Below are positions 6,947-36,532 of a stretch of DNA of 64,000 bases, one piece after another; within the stretch, counting starts at the first letter, position 1; each line of letters opens with the position of its first letter. The notes beneath the pieces are model-generated. The model saw only the letters and a list, made by a program, of their open reading frames with translations. It made no database searches and was not told the origin of the DNA. A program made the position numbers and the translations under genes. The DNA is from Candidatus Moranbacteria bacterium CG06_land_8_20_14_3_00_40_12. Its GTDB lineage: Bacteria > Patescibacteriota > Minisyncoccia > Moranbacterales > UBA2206. The stretch is from positions 8,754 to 72,753 of the forward strand of contig PEVT01000048.1 in the NCBI GenBank assembly GCA_002780175.1, written 5' to 3'.

Positions 6947-7732
6947 ATGATAATAATTTTTTTAATTTTCGGGCTTATTATCGGCAGTTTTTTGAATGTG
7001 GTGATTTACCGGCTGAATCTGGCGGAAAGCCTTTTGGGGCGATCGCATTGTCCACATTGCAAAAATAAAATCAGTTGGTATGACAATATCCCATTGTTAA
7101 GTTTTATCCTGCTTTTTGCCAAGTGCCGCTATTGCCAAAAAAACATTTCCTGGCAATATCCCTTGATGGAATTGGCGACCGGGATTATTTTTGCCGAAAC
7201 CGCCTATGTTTTTTTATTAAACGGCCGCCTGGAAAATTGGCTGGAAACTATTTTCTATTTGGGGCTTTTTTCCGCGTTGCTGGTTATTTTTGTTTTTGAC
7301 TTAAAACATTTGGAAATTCCCATGCCGGTGCTCTGGCTGGCCCTAATCTGGACTTTATTTTTTTTGCTGGTTTTAGACGGGATAACCTTTATCCCCGGAC
7401 AAACCATTTTTTCTTCGAGAATTTTTTCCGGAAATTTAGGAGGATTGCTGGCTTTTATTTTTTTCTTCGCGCTCTCTTTCGGTTCCAAAGAAAAATGGAT
7501 GGGAATGGGAGACGCTTATCTGGCGCTTCTTATCGGATTGAGTTTAGGCTGGACCAAAATTTTTTTCGCCTTATTGCTGGCCTTTTTTCTGGGATCGCTG
7601 GTGGGAATCGGACTGGTGATATTCCGGAAAAAAACTTTGAAAAGCCAGATTCCTTTCGGACCGTTTTTAGTTTCCGGAGCGATAATGACAGTTTTGTTTT
7701 TTGATCTGTTTCCAATTTTCCAGAGCTGGTAA
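6947..7732 (+). CDS. pilD: Prepilin peptidase PilD (A24 family, with N-terminal zinc ribbon)
   Basis: CPHC...CRYC tetracysteine, then a polytopic membrane domain with conserved acidic residues. Sits inside the pilin cluster. Confidence 0.8.
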   Translation: MIIIFLIFGLIIGSFLNVVIYRLNLAESLLGRSHCPHCKNKISWYDNIPLLSFILLFAKCRYCQKNISWQYPLMELATGIIFAETAYVFLLNGRLENWLETIFYLGLFSALLVIFVFDLKHLEIPMPVLWLALIWTLFFLLVLDGITFIPGQTIFSSRIFSGNLGGLLAFIFFFALSFGSKEKWMGMGDAYLALLIGLSLGWTKIFFALLLAFFLGSLVGIGLVIFRKKTLKSQIPFGPFLVSGAIMTVLFFDLFPIFQSW

Positions 7733-7821
7733 TTTTAAAATATTTTGTCATTCTGAAACCCGCCTGCCGGCGAGGCAAGCAAGTTCGGGATGGCATGATC
7801 GAAGATGAGTTTATTAAGTTT

Positions 7822-8274
7822 ATGAAAATAATTAAACAAAAAGGATTTTCTCTTTTGGAATTGATAATTGTTATTGCCATCGTAGGTATTATGACGGCGA
7901 TAACGCTGGTTTCAATGAATACTCTGCGGGAAAAAAAGGCGGTGGAAGAAGCCGCCAGAGAAGTAGCGGCGGCGATTCGAGAAACGCAAAATTACGCCCT
8001 GACCGGAAAAGATATTACAGCCGACTCCTCCGCTTGCGCTTATGTTTTTGGCTGGGCGGGAACCGGCTATAATATGAGTGGTTGCGATTCTCAAGTTTAT
8101 TCATTGAAAAACGACACGACCTTTGTTAATAACGGAAGTTTTTCTTTTTCTGTTCCTTTCGCCACTCTTAACCCGTCAGCCGATATAGACATTGTTTTAT
8201 TGAAAGGCGGCAGTTTTTATCATGTGTGCGTTTATATTTCAGGCTTGGTAAAAGAAAGTTTGAGCGGATGTTAA
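7822..8274 (+). CDS. Pseudopilin / minor pilin
   Basis: MKIIKQKGFSLLELIIVIAIVGIMTAITLV prepilin motif. The internal ATG at 7822 is preferred over the listed start at 7795 because it gives a normal 8-aa leader. Confidence 0.65.
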   Translation: MKIIKQKGFSLLELIIVIAIVGIMTAITLVSMNTLREKKAVEEAAREVAAAIRETQNYALTGKDITADSSACAYVFGWAGTGYNMSGCDSQVYSLKNDTTFVNNGSFSFSVPFATLNPSADIDIVLLKGGSFYHVCVYISGLVKESLSGC

Positions 8275-8297: not shown

Positions 8298-8813
8298 ATG
8301 CGGGAAAATTTTAAAAAAAATGAAAAAAAGGGCTATTCTTTGCTGGAAGTAATGCTGGTTATTTTTATTCTAGGAACCGCTTTGGTGGTTTTTGTTCAAG
8401 TGATAAGTAAAAGCATCATTCATTCTATGGACAGCCGGGATACGATAATCGCTTCCGAACTGGCTCAAGAAGGAGTGGAGTTGACAATAAATATCCGGGA
8501 TAATAACTGGGCGCAGAAGCTTGAAGATTTCTCGGGAATAGATAACGGATCTCACGCCATAAATTATAACGGCGGCGCTTTAATTTCTTTGGGAACGGGA
8601 AAACTTAGATGGAGCGGCAGCTATTACAATACTTCTTCAGGAAGTGAAACGAAATTCTCCCGGAAGATAATCGTGGATGGCGATGCCGATGTAAAAAAAA
8701 TAACCAGCCTGGTGGTTTGGGAAAGAAACGATTTTCCTCCCGACACGACCTCTTGCCACGCGGCCAATAAATGCGCTTACGCGGAAGTAAATTTGACTAA
8801 ATGGGGAAACTAA
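8298..8813 (+). CDS. Pseudopilin / minor pilin (GspH-like)
   Basis: KKNEKKGYSLLEVMLVIFILGTALVVF prepilin motif. Confidence 0.65.
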   Translation: MRENFKKNEKKGYSLLEVMLVIFILGTALVVFVQVISKSIIHSMDSRDTIIASELAQEGVELTINIRDNNWAQKLEDFSGIDNGSHAINYNGGALISLGTGKLRWSGSYYNTSSGSETKFSRKIIVDGDADVKKITSLVVWERNDFPPDTTSCHAANKCAYAEVNLTKWGN

Positions 8814-8817
8814 AAAC

Positions 8818-9543
8818 ATGAATTTAGAGAAAAATAAAAAAGCCATGCCTGTCGGCAGGCAGGGATTTGCTCCCGCGCCGGAATGTTCCGTATATCGGCC
8901 CTCTCTCCTTAATTCGGCGCAGCGGGTCGGCAAGGCGGCTGAATATGAAAACGGATGGTTAAAAGCCCGAAAGACAAGCGCTTTGGCAAAAGGATTCACA
9001 CTCATAGAAATGATGATTGCGATTTTCATATTTTCTCTAATGATGATCGCGGTGACGGAGATATTTTCCAGTTCCTTTGGCGGATATGGCAACGCCCGCA
9101 ATATCCAAAAAGATTTGGAAGACGCCCAATTTGTGATGGGTCAGATAGCTAAAACTTTGCGAACCAGCAGCATCGTGAATATTGGTGGAAGTTCTGAAAT
9201 AACAGTCTATGATTATTCTCAAAATAAATGCGTTGCTTATCAATTTGTATCCGGAGAAATCAGGACTGACACTACGGCTGATGATTCCGTGCCGTCCACC
9301 AGCGATCCCGTTGACTGGTGTTTTGCGAATTTCTCTCCGGATTTTTCCGCTTATAATAAGATGGCGGCTTTTTTCGTGGATGGCCGGTTTAATTCAATCA
9401 AATCGGACAACACTCCCGGAAGTGAAATATTGGGCAAGGTCACCATTTCAATGAAAATATGTTCCAACTCCAGTTGCTCCAAAGACGAAGCCGTGATTCA
9501 AACGTCAGTTTCTTTAAGAGATTATACCAAGGCGGGAATTTAA
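8818..9543 (+). CDS. Pilin-like protein with abnormally long (~56 aa) leader containing an inserted GC-rich palindromic element
   Basis: The canonical motif AKGFTLIEMMIAIFIFSLMM sits at residue ~55. The first 9 aa (MNLEKNKKA) resemble neighbouring pilin leaders. Nt 8845-8980 are GC-rich and contain CCTGTCGGCAGGCAGG, a variant of the window-wide palindrome. Confidence 0.55.
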   Translation: MNLEKNKKAMPVGRQGFAPAPECSVYRPSLLNSAQRVGKAAEYENGWLKARKTSALAKGFTLIEMMIAIFIFSLMMIAVTEIFSSSFGGYGNARNIQKDLEDAQFVMGQIAKTLRTSSIVNIGGSSEITVYDYSQNKCVAYQFVSGEIRTDTTADDSVPSTSDPVDWCFANFSPDFSAYNKMAAFFVDGRFNSIKSDNTPGSEILGKVTISMKICSNSSCSKDEAVIQTSVSLRDYTKAGI

Positions 9544-10685: not shown

Positions 10686-12833
<2,148 letters not shown>

Positions 12834-15416: not shown

Positions 15417-15491
15417 AGCGGGGTAGAGTAATGGCAGCTCGTCTGGCTCATAACCAGGAGGTTGCAGGTTCGAATCCTGCCCCCGCAACCA
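15417..15491 (+). tRNA. tRNA-Met (CAU), initiator-like (fMet)
   Basis: A near-copy of E. coli tRNA-fMet: ...CTGGCTCATAACCAGG... T-arm GGTTCGAATCC. It ends CCCCCGCAACCA with an unpaired 1:72 position and an encoded CCA. Confidence 0.75.
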
Positions 15492-15620
15492 AGCTAAGCT
15501 TGGTTTAGGCCAGCTAAGCTGGCCAACCAAGAAACCAGGATTATTTTAGGTCAGCTAAGCTGGCCAACCAAGAAACTAAGATTATTTTAGGCCAGCTAAG
15601 CTGGCCAACCAAGAAATAAA
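15481..15620 (+). repeat. Tandem array of four hairpins (CCAAGCTAAGCTTGG, then 3x GGCCAGCTAAGCTGGCC at a 41-bp period)
   Basis: Seen directly. Three ~41-bp units (GGCCAGCTAAGCTGGCCAACCAAGAAAyyAgGATTATTTTAG). Sits between the tRNA and the GIY-YIG gene. No unique spacers. Confidence 0.6.
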
Positions 15621-15621
15621 T

Positions 15622-15894
15622 ATGTATTATGTTTATATACTGTTTAGTGAAAAAGATAAACAATTGTATATTGGCTATGCAGATGATTTAAAAGCTAGAT
15701 TTGAAAAACATAGCAAAGGATTTGTTCGCGCAACTAAATTTAGACTACCGCTGAAATTGATTTATTATGAAGCATATATAAAACAATCCGACGCTAAGCG
15801 TCGGGAAAAGTTTTTAAAAGGCGGAAAAGGTAGGGGTCAATTGAAGATTCAATTAAAAGATATTTTAGAGAAAGTGTGCTATAAAAACTTGTAA
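15622..15894 (+). CDS. Small GIY-YIG nuclease-domain protein (UPF0213/YhbQ-like)
   Basis: YYVYILFSEKDKQLYIGYADDLKARFEKH carries the GIY...YIG motifs. 90 aa. Confidence 0.75.
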   Translation: MYYVYILFSEKDKQLYIGYADDLKARFEKHSKGFVRATKFRLPLKLIYYEAYIKQSDAKRREKFLKGGKGRGQLKIQLKDILEKVCYKNL

Positions 15895-31435: not shown

Positions 31436-32160
31436 GGCAATACGTGTTAAATTTAAATAAATTAATTTTTTCCAGCCAATAAATGGTAGTGTCCAAGAAA
31501 TATTTTAAAAAGAAAAGCGGGTGAGTTTTTTGGTTTTTTTATTAAATGGATAAAAAAATTGGAAACCCGCGTAAGCGGTTTTTTTGTTTGTTTCTACCAG
31601 GTACTAATTACTAATCAAATACCTGCCTACCGGCAGGCAGGCTAATATACTAATAAATTAATTTTATTATTCGTATATTCGTAATAAATTCGTAATTCGT
31701 AAAGATTACAAGCATTACTTCGGAAACCAGTTTATATAACAAAAGATTAGGTTATATGCACACGTTTCCGCAGCAGCAGGACTTTAACAATTGAACAGGT
31801 CTTACTAAAATATTGGATTTCGAGCGCAAGCGGAAATTCGAATTGAATATTTTGGTTAGTCTTCCGGCATCTTCGCAATAAGATGCTGGAAATAGGTTAT
31901 CTTTGTTTTTATGAAGAAAAAACAAAGAAAATTGCAAATAACAAATGTAATTAGAAATTGTTAACTGCTAATTAATTCCGATCTTCTTATGATCGGAAGA
32001 TTCCTGTGAAAAATCAGGAAAAGTTTAAGGTAAGTTACTCAAATGCGTATGGTGGATGCCTTGACATTAAAAAGCGACGAAGGACGTAGCTGGCTGCGAT
32101 AAGCCCCGGGGAGTTGTTAAGCAAACTGTGATCCGGGGATTTCCGAATGCGATAACGCAA

Positions 32161-32350
32161 CCATTCTTCACTAACGTTCAGAATGAAATTTTAAAGACTA
32201 AATTTAAAATTTTAAATCAAATCTAAATGACTAAATTTTAAAAATTTAATCATTTGAAAATTTAAAATTCATTTAAAATTTATAATTTAAAATTGAAAAT
32301 TTACAGTTTTTGTAAATATAAAAGTTCTGAATATTAGCGAAGGATGGTTA
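32161..32350 (+). repeat. AT-rich expansion element in 23S domain I (copy 1)
   Basis: Starts CCATTCTTCACTAACGTTCAGAATGAAATTTTAAAGACTAAATTTAAAATTTTAAATCAAATCTAAATGAC. More than 90% identical to 32474-32600. Its terminal arms are imperfectly complementary. Confidence 0.7.
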
Positions 32351-32473
32351 TTCTTAGCTGAATTCATAGGTTAAGAAAGCGCACCCTGGGAACTGAAACA
32401 TCTTAGTACCAGGAGGAAAAGAAAACAATTGTGATTCCGTCAGTAGTGGCGAGCGAAAGCGGAATAGCCTAAA

Positions 32474-32638
32474 CCATTCTTCACTAACGTTCAGAATGAA
32501 ATTTTAAAGACTAAATTTAAAATTTTAAATCAAATCTAAATGACTAAATTTTAAAACTTTAATCATTTAAAAATTTAAAATTCATTTAAAATTTATAATT
32601 TAAAATTAAAAATTTCCGAGCAATAGCGAGGGATGGTG
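32474..32638 (+). repeat. AT-rich expansion element in 23S domain I (copy 2)
   Basis: Same element as 32161-32350. It is inserted ~130 nt further into the rRNA, after AGTAGTGGCGAGCGAAAGCGGAATAGCC. Confidence 0.7.
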
Positions 32639-32943
32639 TTGCGAGACAATCTTACTCGTTTAATCGGGACCGGTGAAAAATCATAGTGGAAAGCTCCTGG
32701 AAAGGACTGCCAAAGAAGGTGAAAGCCCTGTACATAAAATGATATTTTATCGGCGTGATTGCTCTCAAGTAAGACGGGACCGGTGAAATCCCGTCTGAAT
32801 CCGGGGCCACTATAGCTCCAAGGCTAAATATTTTTAATGATCGATAGCGAACTAGTACCGTGAGGGAAAGGTGAAAAGCATCCCGATGAGGGAGATGAAA
32901 TAGTATCTGAAACCATATGCTAACGAAGAGTCAGAGCCGTGCA

Positions 32944-33118
32944 TAGCACGGAAGCTCCAAATCCAAAATCCCAAATCCAAAATAAATCCCAAATCCAAAA
33001 TCCCAAAGTTTAAAACATTGGGTCATTGGAAAATTGTCTGGCTTTGCCAGACTTGGCGTAGCCAAGGAATTTGTTTGGAAATTGGAAATTGGAAATTGGA
33101 AATTCCGCGCTGTGCGCG
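32944..33118 (+). repeat. IVS-like insertion at 23S helix 25 (CCAAATCC/GGAAATTGG repeat arms, central GTCTGGCTTTGCCAGAC palindrome)
   Basis: It replaces the helix-25 loop between GAGCCGTGCATAGCACGGAAG and GCGCTGTGCGCGGTGATGGCGTGC. Arms are CCAAATCCAAAATCCCAAATCC... and ...GGAAATTGGAAATTGGAAATTCC. Confidence 0.7.
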
Positions 33119-33938
33119 GTGATGGCGTGCTTTTTGTAGAACGAGCCAACGAGTTAGTTCTGTGCGGCTGGATAAGCTACTTTCGTAGCGGATCCACAGT
33201 GAAAGCGAGGCTTAACCGCCGTTCGTTCGTATCATACTGCGTGTGATACTCACTTAAAATCAAAATTAAAAAATCAAAAATTAAAATTTTGGTATGCGCT
33301 TCGCGCATGACAATTATAGATAAGTAATTGTCGCGAAGCGACTCCTTAATTTTTCATTTTGATATTTAATTTTTAAATTTTAGCGAGTATCGAGCGTAGC
33401 GAGATACGAGCGATTGTCGTACGGACTAGACCCGAAGCCAGGCGAGCTATTTATGAGCAGGGTGAATTTGGAGTAAAATCCAAAAGAGGCCCGAACCCAC
33501 GAGCCGTTCAACACTCGGGGATGACTTGTGAATAGAGGAGAAATTCCAATCGAGCTTGGCGATAGCTGGTTCTTCCCGAAATAGCTTGAGGGCTAGTGTC
33601 TTTTAAATGAGCTTAAAAGGTAGAGCTACTGAATGAGAATTCGCGGTTCGCCGTAGGATTCTCAACCAAACTCCGAATTTTTAAGTTTCTTATTAGGGCA
33701 GTCAGAAATCCGGGTCTAAGCTCGGATCTCAAAAGGGAAAAAGCCCAGACCGCAATCTAAGGTCCCCAAATTTATGTTAAGTGGAAAAGGAGGTGAAGTT
33801 TCTTATACACCTAGGAGGTTGGCTCAGAAGCAGCCATCCTTTAAAGAGTGCGTAACAGCTCACTAGTCTAGAGACTTTGCGCCGAAAATTTAACGGGGCT
33901 AAACATAATACCGAAGGTGCGGGTCAGTGTTATGCACT

Positions 33939-34092
33939 GGAAATCCCAAATCCAAAATCCCAAATCCAAAATAAATCCCAAATCCAAAATCCCAAAGTTT
34001 AAAACATTGGGTCATTGGAAAAGTGCCTGCCTGCCGGCAGGCAGGGAATTTGTTTGGAAATTGGAAATTGGAAATTGGAAATTCCAGCGCGT
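33939..34092 (+). repeat. IVS-like insertion at 23S helix 45 (same arm element, central CCTGCCTGCCGGCAGGCAGG palindrome)
   Basis: Arms identical to 32944-33118. The central hairpin is swapped for the 20-bp GC palindrome at 34026-34045. Confidence 0.7.
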
Positions 34093-35261
34093 AGCGCTGG
34101 CGGTAGGGAAGTGTTCTCTGCGCAGCGAAGTCCACGATGTGAATCGGGATGGAGCGCAGAGAAGTAAGAATGTTGGCATGAGTAACCACAATACCGATGA
34201 AAACTCGGTACACCGAAAGTCTAAGGTTTCCTGGGCAATGACAATCATCCCAGGGTTAGTCGGGCCTAAGGCGAGGCCGAAAGGCGTAGTCGATGGACAT
34301 ACGGTTAATATTCCGTAACTTCAAAAATTTTCGATGGAGCGACGTATCTTTGTAGTTTTTGCGCATTATTGGATTTGCGTATTTAATTTGAGGGTGCTTT
34401 TCAGGCAAATCCGGAAAGTATCGCCCAAGAATTAGGTGGAATTCCGACGTAAGTCGGGAGAACAAAGGCGAGCAAGGTACCAGGAAAAACTTCTAAGATT
34501 ATGATTTTTGAATCCGTACTAAAACCGACACAGGTAGACTGGGCGAGAAGCCTAAGGTGAACGGATGAACCTTCGTCAAGGAACTCTGCAATACAACTAG
34601 ACGTAAGTTAGCAAGATGTCTTTCCTACACCACCTTGATTCTTTAGATTATTTTTTAATAAGGAATCAGAGTGGTGTAGGACACAGTAAAAAATTTCAAG
34701 CGACTGTTTATCAAAAACACAGGTCTCTGCAAACTCGCAAGAGGAAGTATAGGGGCTGACGCCTGACCAGTGCTGGAACGTTAACGGAAGCGGTGCAAGC
34801 CAATTCCCGAAGCGCCAGTGAACGTCGGCGATAACTATAATCGTCCTAAGGTAGCGAAATTCCTTGTCAGGTAAGTTCTGACCCGCATCAAAGGCGTAAC
34901 GACTTGAAAACTGTCTCGACGAAGAGTCCGGTGAAATTGCAATGGCGGTAAAGATGCCGTCGACCTGCAGCAAGACGAAAAGACCCCGTGGAGCTTTACT
35001 ACAACTTGGTATTGACTTAGAGTTTTAGTTGCCGAGCTTAGGTGGGAGGCTGTGAAGTCCCGATTCTGGTCGGGATGGAGCCAACAAGTGGAATACCACC
35101 CTGCTGATGTTCTAAGTCTAACCCTGGTCTGTTATGAGTCTACTAAGACGAATAACCATTGATGAACCAGAAAATATACTCAAATTGTTTAGTGTGTTTT
35201 TCATGGTTCAAAAATTTATTTAGTCTTAGTTATTCATACCAGACCGGGAACAGTGCCTGGT

Positions 35262-35294
<33 letters not shown>

Positions 35295-35455
35295 GGCAAC
35301 GGAGGCGTTTACAAAGGTTGGCTAGGTCCGGATGGAAATCGGACTGATAGTACAAAAGCATAAGCCAGCTTTACTGAAAGACCCATAAGTCAATCAGTCA
35401 CGAAAGTGGAATTTAGTGAACCGACCATCGCTCATAGGAGCGTGGAAGATCATCA

Positions 35456-35488
<33 letters not shown>

Positions 35489-35620
35489 CCTCCCAAGAGT
35501 CCACATCGACGGAGGGGTTTGGCACCTCGATGTCGGCCCATCGCATCCTGGGGGTGGAGAAGCTCCCAAGGGTTTGGCTGTTCGCCAATTAAAGCGGTAC
35601 GCGAGCTGGGTTCAAACCGT

Positions 35621-35903
35621 AAAACAGCTTTTAGCTATTAGCTTATAGCTTTTAGGTAAAGGAAATTTTACAGTTTGAATCCGAGGTAAAGACATCACAA
35701 GCGGCGGCTTTTAGTAGCAATATTAAAAGTGAAGCTAACTTATATCGGTAAAATCCCGAATTCTCGGGACAATACCGAGGGAATGGTTCGACTTTGCTCA
35801 CCATGAGCGATAAGAATCGACCCGTAGAGACTAAACGTTAGCCTTCCTGAATTTTAGGGAAGAATTTATAGTCCATACACGCAGTAATGCGTGAACCAGT
35901 ATG
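35621..35903 (+). ncRNA. Putative group I intron (283 nt) in 23S domain V near the peptidyl-transferase centre
   Basis: It interrupts GGGTTCAAACCGT | CGTGAGACAGGTTGG (E. coli GGGUUUAGAACGUCGUGAGACAG). The 5' exon ends in U and the insert ends in G. P7-like strands AGAGACTAAACG and TATAGTC sit ~60 nt apart. No ORF. Confidence 0.5.
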
Positions 35904-36099
35904 CGTGAGACAGGTTGGTCTCCTATCTGCTGTGGGCGTTTATTGCTTGAGAGGAGTCTTTTTTAGTACGAGAGGACCGAAAAGAACGAACCTCTGGTGT
36001 ACCAGTTGCATCGCCAGATGCACAGCTGGGTAGCTAAGTTCGGACTGGATAATCGCTGAAAGCATATAAGCGAGAAGCCATCCTCAAGATTAGGCAATG

Positions 36100-36290
36100 C
36101 CAATGCGTAGCATTGGAATAACCAATGACCAAGTACCAATGACCAATAAATTTCCAATGACCGAATGAACAATTTTTAAATTAAAAGTTTGATTATTGGA
36201 GTTTGGGATTTGAGATTTTTTTGGAATTTGGAATTTGGAATTTGGAAATTCCACTGCTATGCAGTGGCCGATTTCCTGGAAGATTACCAG
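36100..36290 (+). repeat. Expansion insertion in 23S 3' domain (helix ~98 region) with (GGAATTT)x4 and CCAATGACC repeats
   Basis: Sits between GCATATAAGCGAGAAGCC and GATAGGTCTCAGGTGTAAGT. Contains TTTGGAATTTGGAATTTGGAATTTGGAAATTCC. Confidence 0.6.
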
Positions 36291-36532
36291 GTCGCCGCGA
36301 GGCGAACCTCGCCAAAGCCGCAAGGCGGAGGCGGGTTGATAGGTCTCAGGTGTAAGTCCGGCAACGGATTAAGCCGAGAGATACTAATAAATTGAATTGT
36401 TACTTATCTTAAATTTTAATGACGCAGGCACATAGCAAATAACTTTGGGTTATTCGCTGTGGCCGCGTGTTGTTGGATTAGCAGTTAATAGTTTCTAATT
36501 TCGCGCTTTTTTTGATTTTAAACATATAATTC

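Follow-up and report, generated by a model that had tools for sequence, protein, structure and literature searches.

What becomes of a prepilin whose cleavage site lies 59 codons downstream of its start codon? The question is raised by an open reading frame (ORF) on the forward strand, 8818..9543, in a 64,000-nucleotide stretch of DNA (hereafter, the window) from Candidatus Moranbacteria, a member of the Patescibacteria or Candidate Phyla Radiation (CPR) with DNA of low G+C content (~40%). The ORF encodes a 241-residue minor type IV prepilin. A first-pass annotation of the window had described a gene that opens with MNLEKNKKA and then reads through G+C-rich DNA before reaching AKG↓FTLIEMM, and we confirmed this arrangement exactly where it had been placed. 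The same annotation had held a single palindromic element responsible for the excess. We found instead that the leader is made up of two layers, a 21-nt palindrome that recurs at the same site in other pilin genes and a single-copy segment of about 125 nt, and that the mature domain behind them is intact.

A long leader precedes a class III cleavage motif

The ORF product has the features of a class III prepilin, namely a Gly at -1, a Phe at +1, a Glu at +5, and a hydrophobic stretch. The motif AKG↓FTLIEMM places the cleavage site at G59↓F60 (GGA 8992-8994, TTC 8995-8997). Residues 58-79 matched the Pfam N_methyl model at 29.8 bits (cut-off 21.2) and TIGR02532 at 25.8 (cut-off 16.3), and hydropathy was maximal at residues 61-79. 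The leader measures 59 residues from ATG 8818 and 50 residues from ATG 8845, the only other in-frame ATG; as had been claimed, no in-frame ATG gives a short leader. Prepilin leaders span 6-26 residues in reviews (PMC4471445) and reach about 30 in type IVb pilins, and this leader falls outside that range from either ATG. Its excess over the ancestral 9-residue leader is 50 residues (150 nt) and is in frame, so the first-pass annotation was right about a very long leader and wrong about the size of the insertion, given as ~47 residues or 141 nt. The G+C content is 60% in 8850-8949 versus roughly 30%-45% on both sides. The leader is hydrophilic, with 11 Lys/Arg versus 4 Asp/Glu (net charge +7), and has no hydrophobic stretch ahead of residue ~55.

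The same 241-residue protein was found on five further independent metagenome contigs (at least 99.7% identical), which rules out an assembly artefact. Pilin-prediction tools expect a short leader, and NCBI annotates the exact product (PIU80362.1, Candidatus Moranbacteria) as a "hypothetical protein" only; PIP26765.1, from the same 90%-identity cluster, is likewise annotated "hypothetical protein, Candidatus Moranbacteria." This cluster holds 13 further variants, 12 of 241 residues and one (P0127) of 232 residues called from M10. We considered whether P0127 might be an allele that naturally has no ATG 8818 and rejected this: its contig carries the same ATG, and the shorter call is thus a product of gene calling near a contig end.

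The ORF has 178 homologues. Among the 120 listed, leaders were mostly 6-20 residues, several up to ~38, and the query N terminus was covered by the query cluster and by P0002, from the locus that we call L006, only. Most of the species-representative Moranbacteria loci that we analysed have an in-frame ATG roughly 6-21 codons ahead of the cleavage site. In a survey of 169 pilin-like genes, leaders clustered at 5-15 residues, and that of the window was the longest not shortenable by a nearer ATG.

Two in-frame insertions lie in an ancestral nine-residue leader

For DNA alignment we used two syntenic relatives: L006, in which most of the cluster is 70%-85% identical to the window at the nucleotide level, and L007, a fragment of 1.35 kb whose neighboring genes are the same. 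The first insertion sits between the last Lys codon of the ancestral leader and the Gly(-1) codon, and L006 is without it (Table 1). It departs slightly from a perfect palindrome of 20 bp, CCTGCCTGCCGGCAGGCAGG, of which it is a copy, with CCTGTCGGCAGGCAGG at 8848-8863; its stem-loop (8846-8861) folds at -11.9 kcal/mol, and the insertion boundary is ambiguous by one G. In L007, the junctions match (AAAG/CCATGCCTG ... GGTCGGCAGGCAGG/GATTT), and the insert is 69 nt long, with another type of palindrome, that of a second family described below, nested inside it.

The second insertion follows the relic Gly-Phe codons of the original cleavage site. This relic, G16-F17, lies 43 residues N-terminal to the working site, and the hydrophobic segment does not follow it. 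At the start of the long segment is a hairpin of its own (-14 kcal/mol; stems at 8875-8882 and 8913-8920), and the segment is bounded by a direct repeat, AAAAGGATT, of the K-G-F codons, its left copy split by the palindrome and its right copy at 8987-8995. The equivalent bounding repeat in L006 is CAAARGGRTTTAC, and the metagenomic locus L100 has a similar GGRTTTAC repeat. Whether or not AAAAGGATT marks a target-site duplication, it is the conserved K-G-F-T coding motif itself, and recombination at these conserved codons is another possible source of the apparent duplication.

L006 carries a counterpart of the long segment at the same place, 105 nt long, diverged, and with a small version of the same hairpin. 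The similarity is weak but significant: a global alignment score as high as that between the two was reached by 1 of 1,000 shuffles, and the two have GF(A/T)P(A/T)P..S and E(N/D)GW.K in common. This counterpart stands without a palindrome. The claim that a member of a repeated palindrome family lies in the leader stood, and the claim that it caused the whole insertion was not supported; it contributes only 21 of the 150 bases.

Both layers are thus present in the window; L006 has just the long segment, L007 just the palindrome, and the remaining loci have neither. The inserts in these three lineages measure 150, 108, and 69 nt, all multiples of three. In the mature domain, P0002 and P0003 are sisters at 72% identity, and the window protein is 55%-61% identical to all close relatives. 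The states are patchy and imply that insertions were either gained more than once at a single site or precisely lost more than once; the flanking direct repeat would favor precise loss. The first-pass annotation had reasoned that a conserved long leader among orthologues would argue for a genuine long-leader class. One orthologue, that of L006, does have a homologous leader, poorly conserved, and all others inspected have shorter ones, typically 8-14 residues, a length seen in more than 100 orthologues. On these alignments, the leader of the window is the outcome of insertions into a 9-residue leader and not the mark of a long-leader pilin class.

Searches with blastn-short and tblastn found no second copy of the long segment in the window or in 58 related loci, only chance matches of 10-14 nt, and a phmmer search of the inserted peptide against 1.84 billion protein representatives returned its own cluster and one spurious tandem-repeat protein. 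With no copies by any of the three methods, we rejected the long segment as a repeated mobile element. Two other candidate origins were set aside as well. For a tRNA-derived insert, several T-arm look-alikes came up in a metagenome pattern scan, but they resembled tRNA only within the 21 bases of the search pattern, and ARAGORN found none; for an intrinsic terminator, the sole terminator-like match was on the opposite strand, an artefact of lysine codons. The long segment is an older, orphan insertion in a leader that is probably cleaved, and most likely a silent one.

The palindrome recurs in the leaders of other pilins

Allowing up to three mismatches, the palindrome motif matched 17 times in the window versus 0.07 matches expected by chance. 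Besides the leader copy, good copies of CCTGCCTGCCGGCAGGCAGG stand at 31622, 34026, 47318, and 56221 and degenerate ones near 7761 and 53629, making five good and two degenerate copies in 64 kb. None of the four good copies other than that in the leader is inside a protein-coding gene, and two follow stop codons by a few bases; the copy at 34026-34045, inside the 23S rRNA gene, is a perfect match to the leader palindrome. The palindrome also occurs in a variant form, GCCATGCCTG...GGCAGGCAG, and the copies embedded in leaders have a common variant, GCCATGCC, unseen in the non-leader copies.

Such leader copies were found in several CPR pilin genes (Table 1). In L009, a GspH-like pilin, which is a different paralogue, carries the same 21 nt with one mismatch, encoding AMPVGRQ directly before Gly-1; a PilV-like gene of this locus has a related copy, and its PilW-like orthologue is without one. 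The leaders of L039 and L122 contain palindrome variants with the same ends and different loops, as does that of L007, and several of these inserts have the same AMP...GRQ ends, directly 5' of Gly-1. Pilins of L031 and L100 have hairpin-bearing leaders with a duplicated Gly-Phe ("double GF"). L100 is an unrelated metagenomic pilin, reading MKSRGFTPTPKFGVSLQSKRG↓FTLIE, and was the one informative hit among 60 matches in a metagenome scan with GGATTTRCNCCCRCRCCGRAA, nearly all of which were chance or tRNA. Its leader has 21 identical bases and a hairpin in common with the start of the L006 segment; a protein word-index search with the L100 leader returned nothing.

That identical 21-nt inserts occupy one and the same codon boundary in pilins of different paralogy and species points to a target preference, and hence to a dedicated way of insertion in CPR. 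The pilin leader is apparently a favored site for the palindrome, as judged from these sequences. Such insertions have a practical consequence in that they mislead automatic start-codon calling: gene callers began the pilins of L007 (428) and L119 (79) at an ATG inside the palindrome, giving MPDCL... and MPVGRQ..., respectively.

ATG 8818 is the most likely start codon

About 39 long ORFs of the window begin with almost no Shine-Dalgarno sites ahead of them, and scoring of such sites was therefore not discriminating; we used A+T content and local folding instead. Across 36 reference gene starts, the mean upstream A+T content was 81 ± 11% and the mean local folding energy -1.35 ± 1.2 kcal/mol. 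ATG 8818 has a typical context (70% A+T, -1.1 kcal/mol), and ATG 8845 (M10) is buried in the palindrome hairpin (-11.5 kcal/mol).

The strongest competitor is an in-frame TTG. The first-pass annotation had pointed to such a codon and given it a 3-residue leader; the codon is there, at 8983, and its leader would have four residues, Met-Ala-Lys-Gly. If it were the functional start, the insertions would be 5' untranslated or spacer DNA, and the frame upstream would be incidental or occasionally translated. The position of this TTG, in frame and four codons from F60, fits such a role, and the L006 segment contains an in-frame ATG that yields a textbook 7-residue leader, MRLRAKG↓F. It would also suit a downstream start that the inserted peptide is unconstrained (see below), that the other copies of the palindrome do not code for protein, and that the leader copy lies 35 nt past the stop codon of the gene 5' of ORF 8818. 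However, TTG 8983 is the least start-like of the 37 sites: its upstream A+T content (45%) is below that of all 36 references, and its local folding (-4.3 kcal/mol) is more structured than 35 of them. Nearly all long ORFs of the window start with ATG, and the ancestral ATG and leader codons are retained in the window, L006, and L007. The coding frame is free of stops in both long-insert lineages, whereas each other sense frame has 3-4 (3 and 4 in the 8869-8991 segment of the window). A 4-residue leader would, moreover, be shorter than any described (6-26 residues, PMC4471445). We consider it unlikely that TTG 8983 is the start in use and infer that translation most likely begins at ATG 8818.

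We also looked at an out-of-frame ATG at 8955 (frame 8955-9152), which would give a plausible frameshifted leader, MVKSPKDKRFGK, and rejected it. It would require a one-base change in the A-run at 8988-8991, and the leader is probably a chance occurrence because slippage needs a longer run than four A's and the aligned strains do not vary here.

The insert varies freely in front of a conserved mature domain

To L120, a strain with 99.5% identity over 3.7 kb, the insert showed four non-synonymous and no synonymous single-nucleotide polymorphisms (SNPs), versus 3 and 12, respectively, outside it (Fisher p = 0.009), at an ~8-fold higher density (Poisson p = 0.002). Across the cluster variants, amino-acid polymorphism was ~5-fold denser in the insert (Fisher p = 0.036), and 14 population variants showed the same bias with no stops and no frameshifts. 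From this bias, together with the stop-free frame, it follows that the inserted peptide is unconstrained in sequence and that its frame is kept. The pattern of substitutions marks the insert as a passenger that evolves under relaxed constraint.

It is conceivable that the long leader, or the hairpins in its RNA, is itself under selection, either as an attenuator of translation or mRNA stability that sets the low stoichiometry of this minor pilin or through some separate role of the leader. The coding region does contain two stable hairpins, of -11.9 and -14 kcal/mol, at 28-100 nt; the stems are free of strain SNPs, whereas the loop of hairpin 2 has three of the four; palindromes recur at exactly this position in several pilins; and their leader-embedded copies share the variant GCCATGCC. 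However, the feature is patchy among orthologues, most of which are without it; neither layer is the same in L006 and L007, which are sister lineages; and length and sequence diverge fast. A structured RNA or riboswitch in 8800-9010 was rejected, since Rfam gave nothing relevant at E ≤ 10 and shuffled sequences fold as well as the region as a whole (z = +0.9). On balance, selection for the leader or its hairpins strikes us as improbable.

The mature domain retains all invariant columns (34 of 34) of a 20-sequence family alignment. An AlphaFold2 model predicts a pilin α1 helix (residues 62-115) and a β sheet (seven strands in the model) with a predicted local distance difference test score (pLDDT) of 84-93, preceded by a low-confidence coil at residues 1-59 (pLDDT below 50 for residues 22-53). 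Its best matches in the PDB were weak and pointed to minor pilins, TTHA1219, EpsJ, and XcpW. The locus also encodes a PilD. A young pseudogene, inactivated by the insertions, would account for a leader outside the known range and for an insert that evolves as if neutral, but it is very hard to square with a complete set of invariant mature-domain residues, population variants without stops or frameshifts, an insertion with an open frame persisting in a relative at 70%-85% nucleotide identity, and an intact four-gene minor-pilin set.

A cleaved leader may harbor silent passengers

We favor a reading, with a probability of roughly 0.6, in which ATG 8818 serves as the start codon, the leader remains on the cytoplasmic side, PilD removes it, and the insertions travel along as silent passengers. 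A G+C-rich palindrome found genome-wide would have landed, as a 21-nt copy, between the last Lys and Gly(-1) codons, and a segment of ~125 nt directly after the original Gly-Phe codons, where a duplication of the K-G-F codons would have recreated the cleavage site at the 3' end of the segment. Translation from the ancestral ATG would then yield a prepilin with a hydrophilic leader of 59 residues. Given its net charge of +7, its want of a hydrophobic stretch, and the positive-inside rule described for prepilins (PMC4471445, PMC10191384), the leader is expected to remain cytoplasmic while the hydrophobic α1N helix enters the membrane. PilD would cut after G59, beside the membrane, and ignore the relic G16-F17, which is far from the membrane, where the active site of the peptidase lies. 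The insertions would be tolerated because they are located in a disposable leader, and they would cost little and persist because the extra 50 residues are discarded with it. Among the three outcomes that the first-pass annotation had offered, processing of the long leader thus appears best supported by the sequence data, with a non-ATG start weakly disfavored and inactivation disfavored.

Several points weigh against this reading. At 59 residues, the leader is about twice the published range of 6-26 (to ~30) residues. To our knowledge, no prepilin peptidase accepts a leader of this length. The inserted segment may have supplied a new start, because the diverged L006 leader, 45 residues in full, contains the ATG that gives MRLRAKG↓F. 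The SNP counts behind the comparison of the insert with its surroundings are small. The mobility of the long segment is unproven, as no other copy turned up anywhere we searched; its ends pair by eye at about 7 of 13 positions and show no convincing terminal inverted repeats; and its counterpart in L006 went undetected when BLAST or phmmer was run with the long segment, and their homology is only moderately supported.

More tentatively, and with more doubt than confidence, we suggest that selfish palindromes in CPR may land preferentially at prepilin cleavage junctions and may survive there since PilD removes the peptide. One family would insert just before Gly(-1) and another after Gly-Phe, with duplication of K-G-F, and the cleaved leader would serve as a safe harbor, like the 23S rRNA expansions that host the same palindromes. 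Were this true, a CPR prepilin peptidase would handle leaders as long as 59 residues, roughly double the maximum known, and processing of this leader would stretch the limits of both class III signal peptides and prepilin peptidase substrates.

Comparison with known palindromic elements and long leaders

The locus works like the insertions of Rickettsia palindromic elements (RPEs) or of intragenic MITEs, the miniature transposable elements with inverted repeats, without membership in a named family. RPEs are described, in the summary of Ogata et al. (2000, 2002) given by PMC10969869, as selfish palindromic DNA lying in frame in genes that stay functional. As in that account, both inserts here are in frame, multiples of three in length, and free of stops, in an ORF that seems functional; the long segment falls within the RPE size range of ~100-150 bp and leaves the mature domain intact, and LigA of the window has in-frame extra segments too. 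RPE families differ in being multi-copy with a conserved peptide, whereas the ~125-nt segment is single-copy and the multi-copy element measures only ~20-21 nt. RPEs also sit in surface loops of mature proteins, whereas here the site is a cleaved leader and the host belongs to CPR and not to the alphaproteobacteria.

The leader element resembles repetitive extragenic palindromes (REPs) in that its 20-bp perfect palindrome is repeated many times, for the most part outside genes. REPs carry a GTAG or CGTC tag at one end (PMC3733652), whereas copies of CCTGCCTGCCGGCAGGCAGG have no such tag and start with CCTG amid varied flanks, and they also occur in a coding leader and in 23S rRNA expansions. 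No RAYT transposase was seen in the window, which represents ~6% of a ~1-Mb genome and whose ORFs were not scanned for Y1 transposases. Intragenic in-frame fusions of MITEs are known (PMC10969869, PMC2759123). The long segment resembles MITEs such as Correia, ERIC, and RUP in its length of ~125 nt, its non-coding origin, its hairpins, and its 9-bp direct repeat (AAAAGGATT) and differs from them in having no convincing terminal inverted repeats and no second copy.

The type IVb and other long-leader prepilins TcpA, CofA, Flp1, and PilE of S. sanguinis likewise have class III signal peptides with hydrophilic leaders longer than the 6-7 residues of classical type IVa pilins, cut by PilD-family enzymes. 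Their leaders, however, are 15-30 residues long and characteristic of a family, whereas that of the window is 59 residues long and confined to one species-level cluster, with a 45-residue relative. Literature searches in a partial library yielded no report of palindromes inserted into prepilin leaders or anywhere in genomes of CPR.

Palindromes and insertions elsewhere in the window

Insertions are not restricted to the pilin gene. The 23S rRNA gene exceeds its model through large expansions, one of 176 nt at model position ~138, one of 147 nt at ~282, and one at ~583, which is the classical helix-25 intervening-sequence site. These expansions consist of A+T-rich repeats and G+C palindromes, including a copy of the second palindrome family at 33039-33069. 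Compared with its E. coli counterpart (2owo), the NAD-dependent DNA ligase LigA (10689-12833) contains additional in-frame segments at residues ~112-127 and ~559-573, and part of the linker before its BRCT domain is encoded by a palindrome at 12575-12605 that belongs to the second, TGGCTATGCCAGATCTGGCGAAGCCAGACAA, family. The distribution suggests that small palindromes in this lineage persist where the product tolerates or removes them, and the locus offers a clean natural example of selfish DNA hiding in such places of a very small genome: a cleaved leader, rRNA expansions, and a ligase linker. We did not count L25 (39428..40126) as a further palindrome-bearing N terminus, since its G+C-rich stretch encodes the usual L25 N-terminal motif.

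The pilin gene itself belongs to a type IV pilus cluster, with pilD 1.1 kb 5' of it. Coordinates in the window and in the comparison loci are collected in Table 1.

Table 1. Coordinates of the long leader, its surroundings, and related features (window positions unless a locus is named)
Feature	Position	Strand	Remarks
Minor type IV prepilin gene	8818..9543	+	PilW/GspJ/ComGF-like position in minor-pilin operon; leader M1-G59 (predicted), mature F60-I241
Ancestral leader codons MNLEKNKK	8818..8841	+	Include the most likely start, ATG 8818; orthologues start M(L)NLSKNKKG↓F or MNFPKKQKG↓F
In-frame palindromic insertion	8842..8862	+	GCC ATG CCT GTC GGC AGG CAG (A-M-P-V-G-R-Q), 21 nt; clean gap versus L006
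Relic Gly-Phe codons of original cleavage site	8863..8868	+	GGA TTT; aligned with GGA TTT of L007 and first GF of L006
Single-copy in-frame insertion (A18-K58)	8869..8991	+	About 123-129 nt; ends ...GCA AAA, then GGA TTC ACA
In-frame TTG (L56), rival start	8983..8985	+	4-residue leader MAKG; four codons ahead of F60
Cleavage site G59↓F60, Glu64 (+5), hydrophobic α1N segment	8992..9057	+	Pfam/TIGR matches; G59, F60, and E64 invariant
PilM, ATPases (PilB, PilT homologues), PilC	5' of the pilins		In type IV pilus cluster
Major-type pilins (two)	5938 and 6520		
PilD prepilin peptidase/N-methyltransferase	6947..7732	+	Pfam A24_N_bact 1.1e-32, Peptidase_A24 4e-10
Minor-pilin set	7795, 8298, 8818, 9558		GspH-like, PilV-like, ORF 8818, and PilX-plus-lectin, respectively
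23S rRNA gene	32028-36411		4,384 nt versus 2,925-nt model
Second G+C-rich palindrome family	12575, 33039, 39069, 46722		TGGCT.TGCCAGA.CTGGCG.AGCCA; four copies
CPR pilin leaders with hairpin-forming in-frame insertions	L009 1944-2010, 2457-2550; L039 2950-3030; L122 146-250		
CPR pilin leaders with hairpin-forming in-frame insertions	L031 2926-3020; L100 634-700	minus (L100)	

The spacer between pilD and the next pilin (7733-7824) contains an eroded palindrome copy, CGCCTGCCGGCGAGGCAAGC, at 7761-7780. That pilin ORF is open from ATG 7795, and its likely start is ATG 7822, which gives the leader MKIIKQKG. Finally, 41-nt units that each contain the palindrome GGCCAGCTAAGCTGGCC stand in a tandem array of three at 15491-15616, between a tRNA-Met gene (15417-15491) and the next ORF (15622-15894), which lies 3' of the units and encodes a 90-residue GIY-YIG nuclease.

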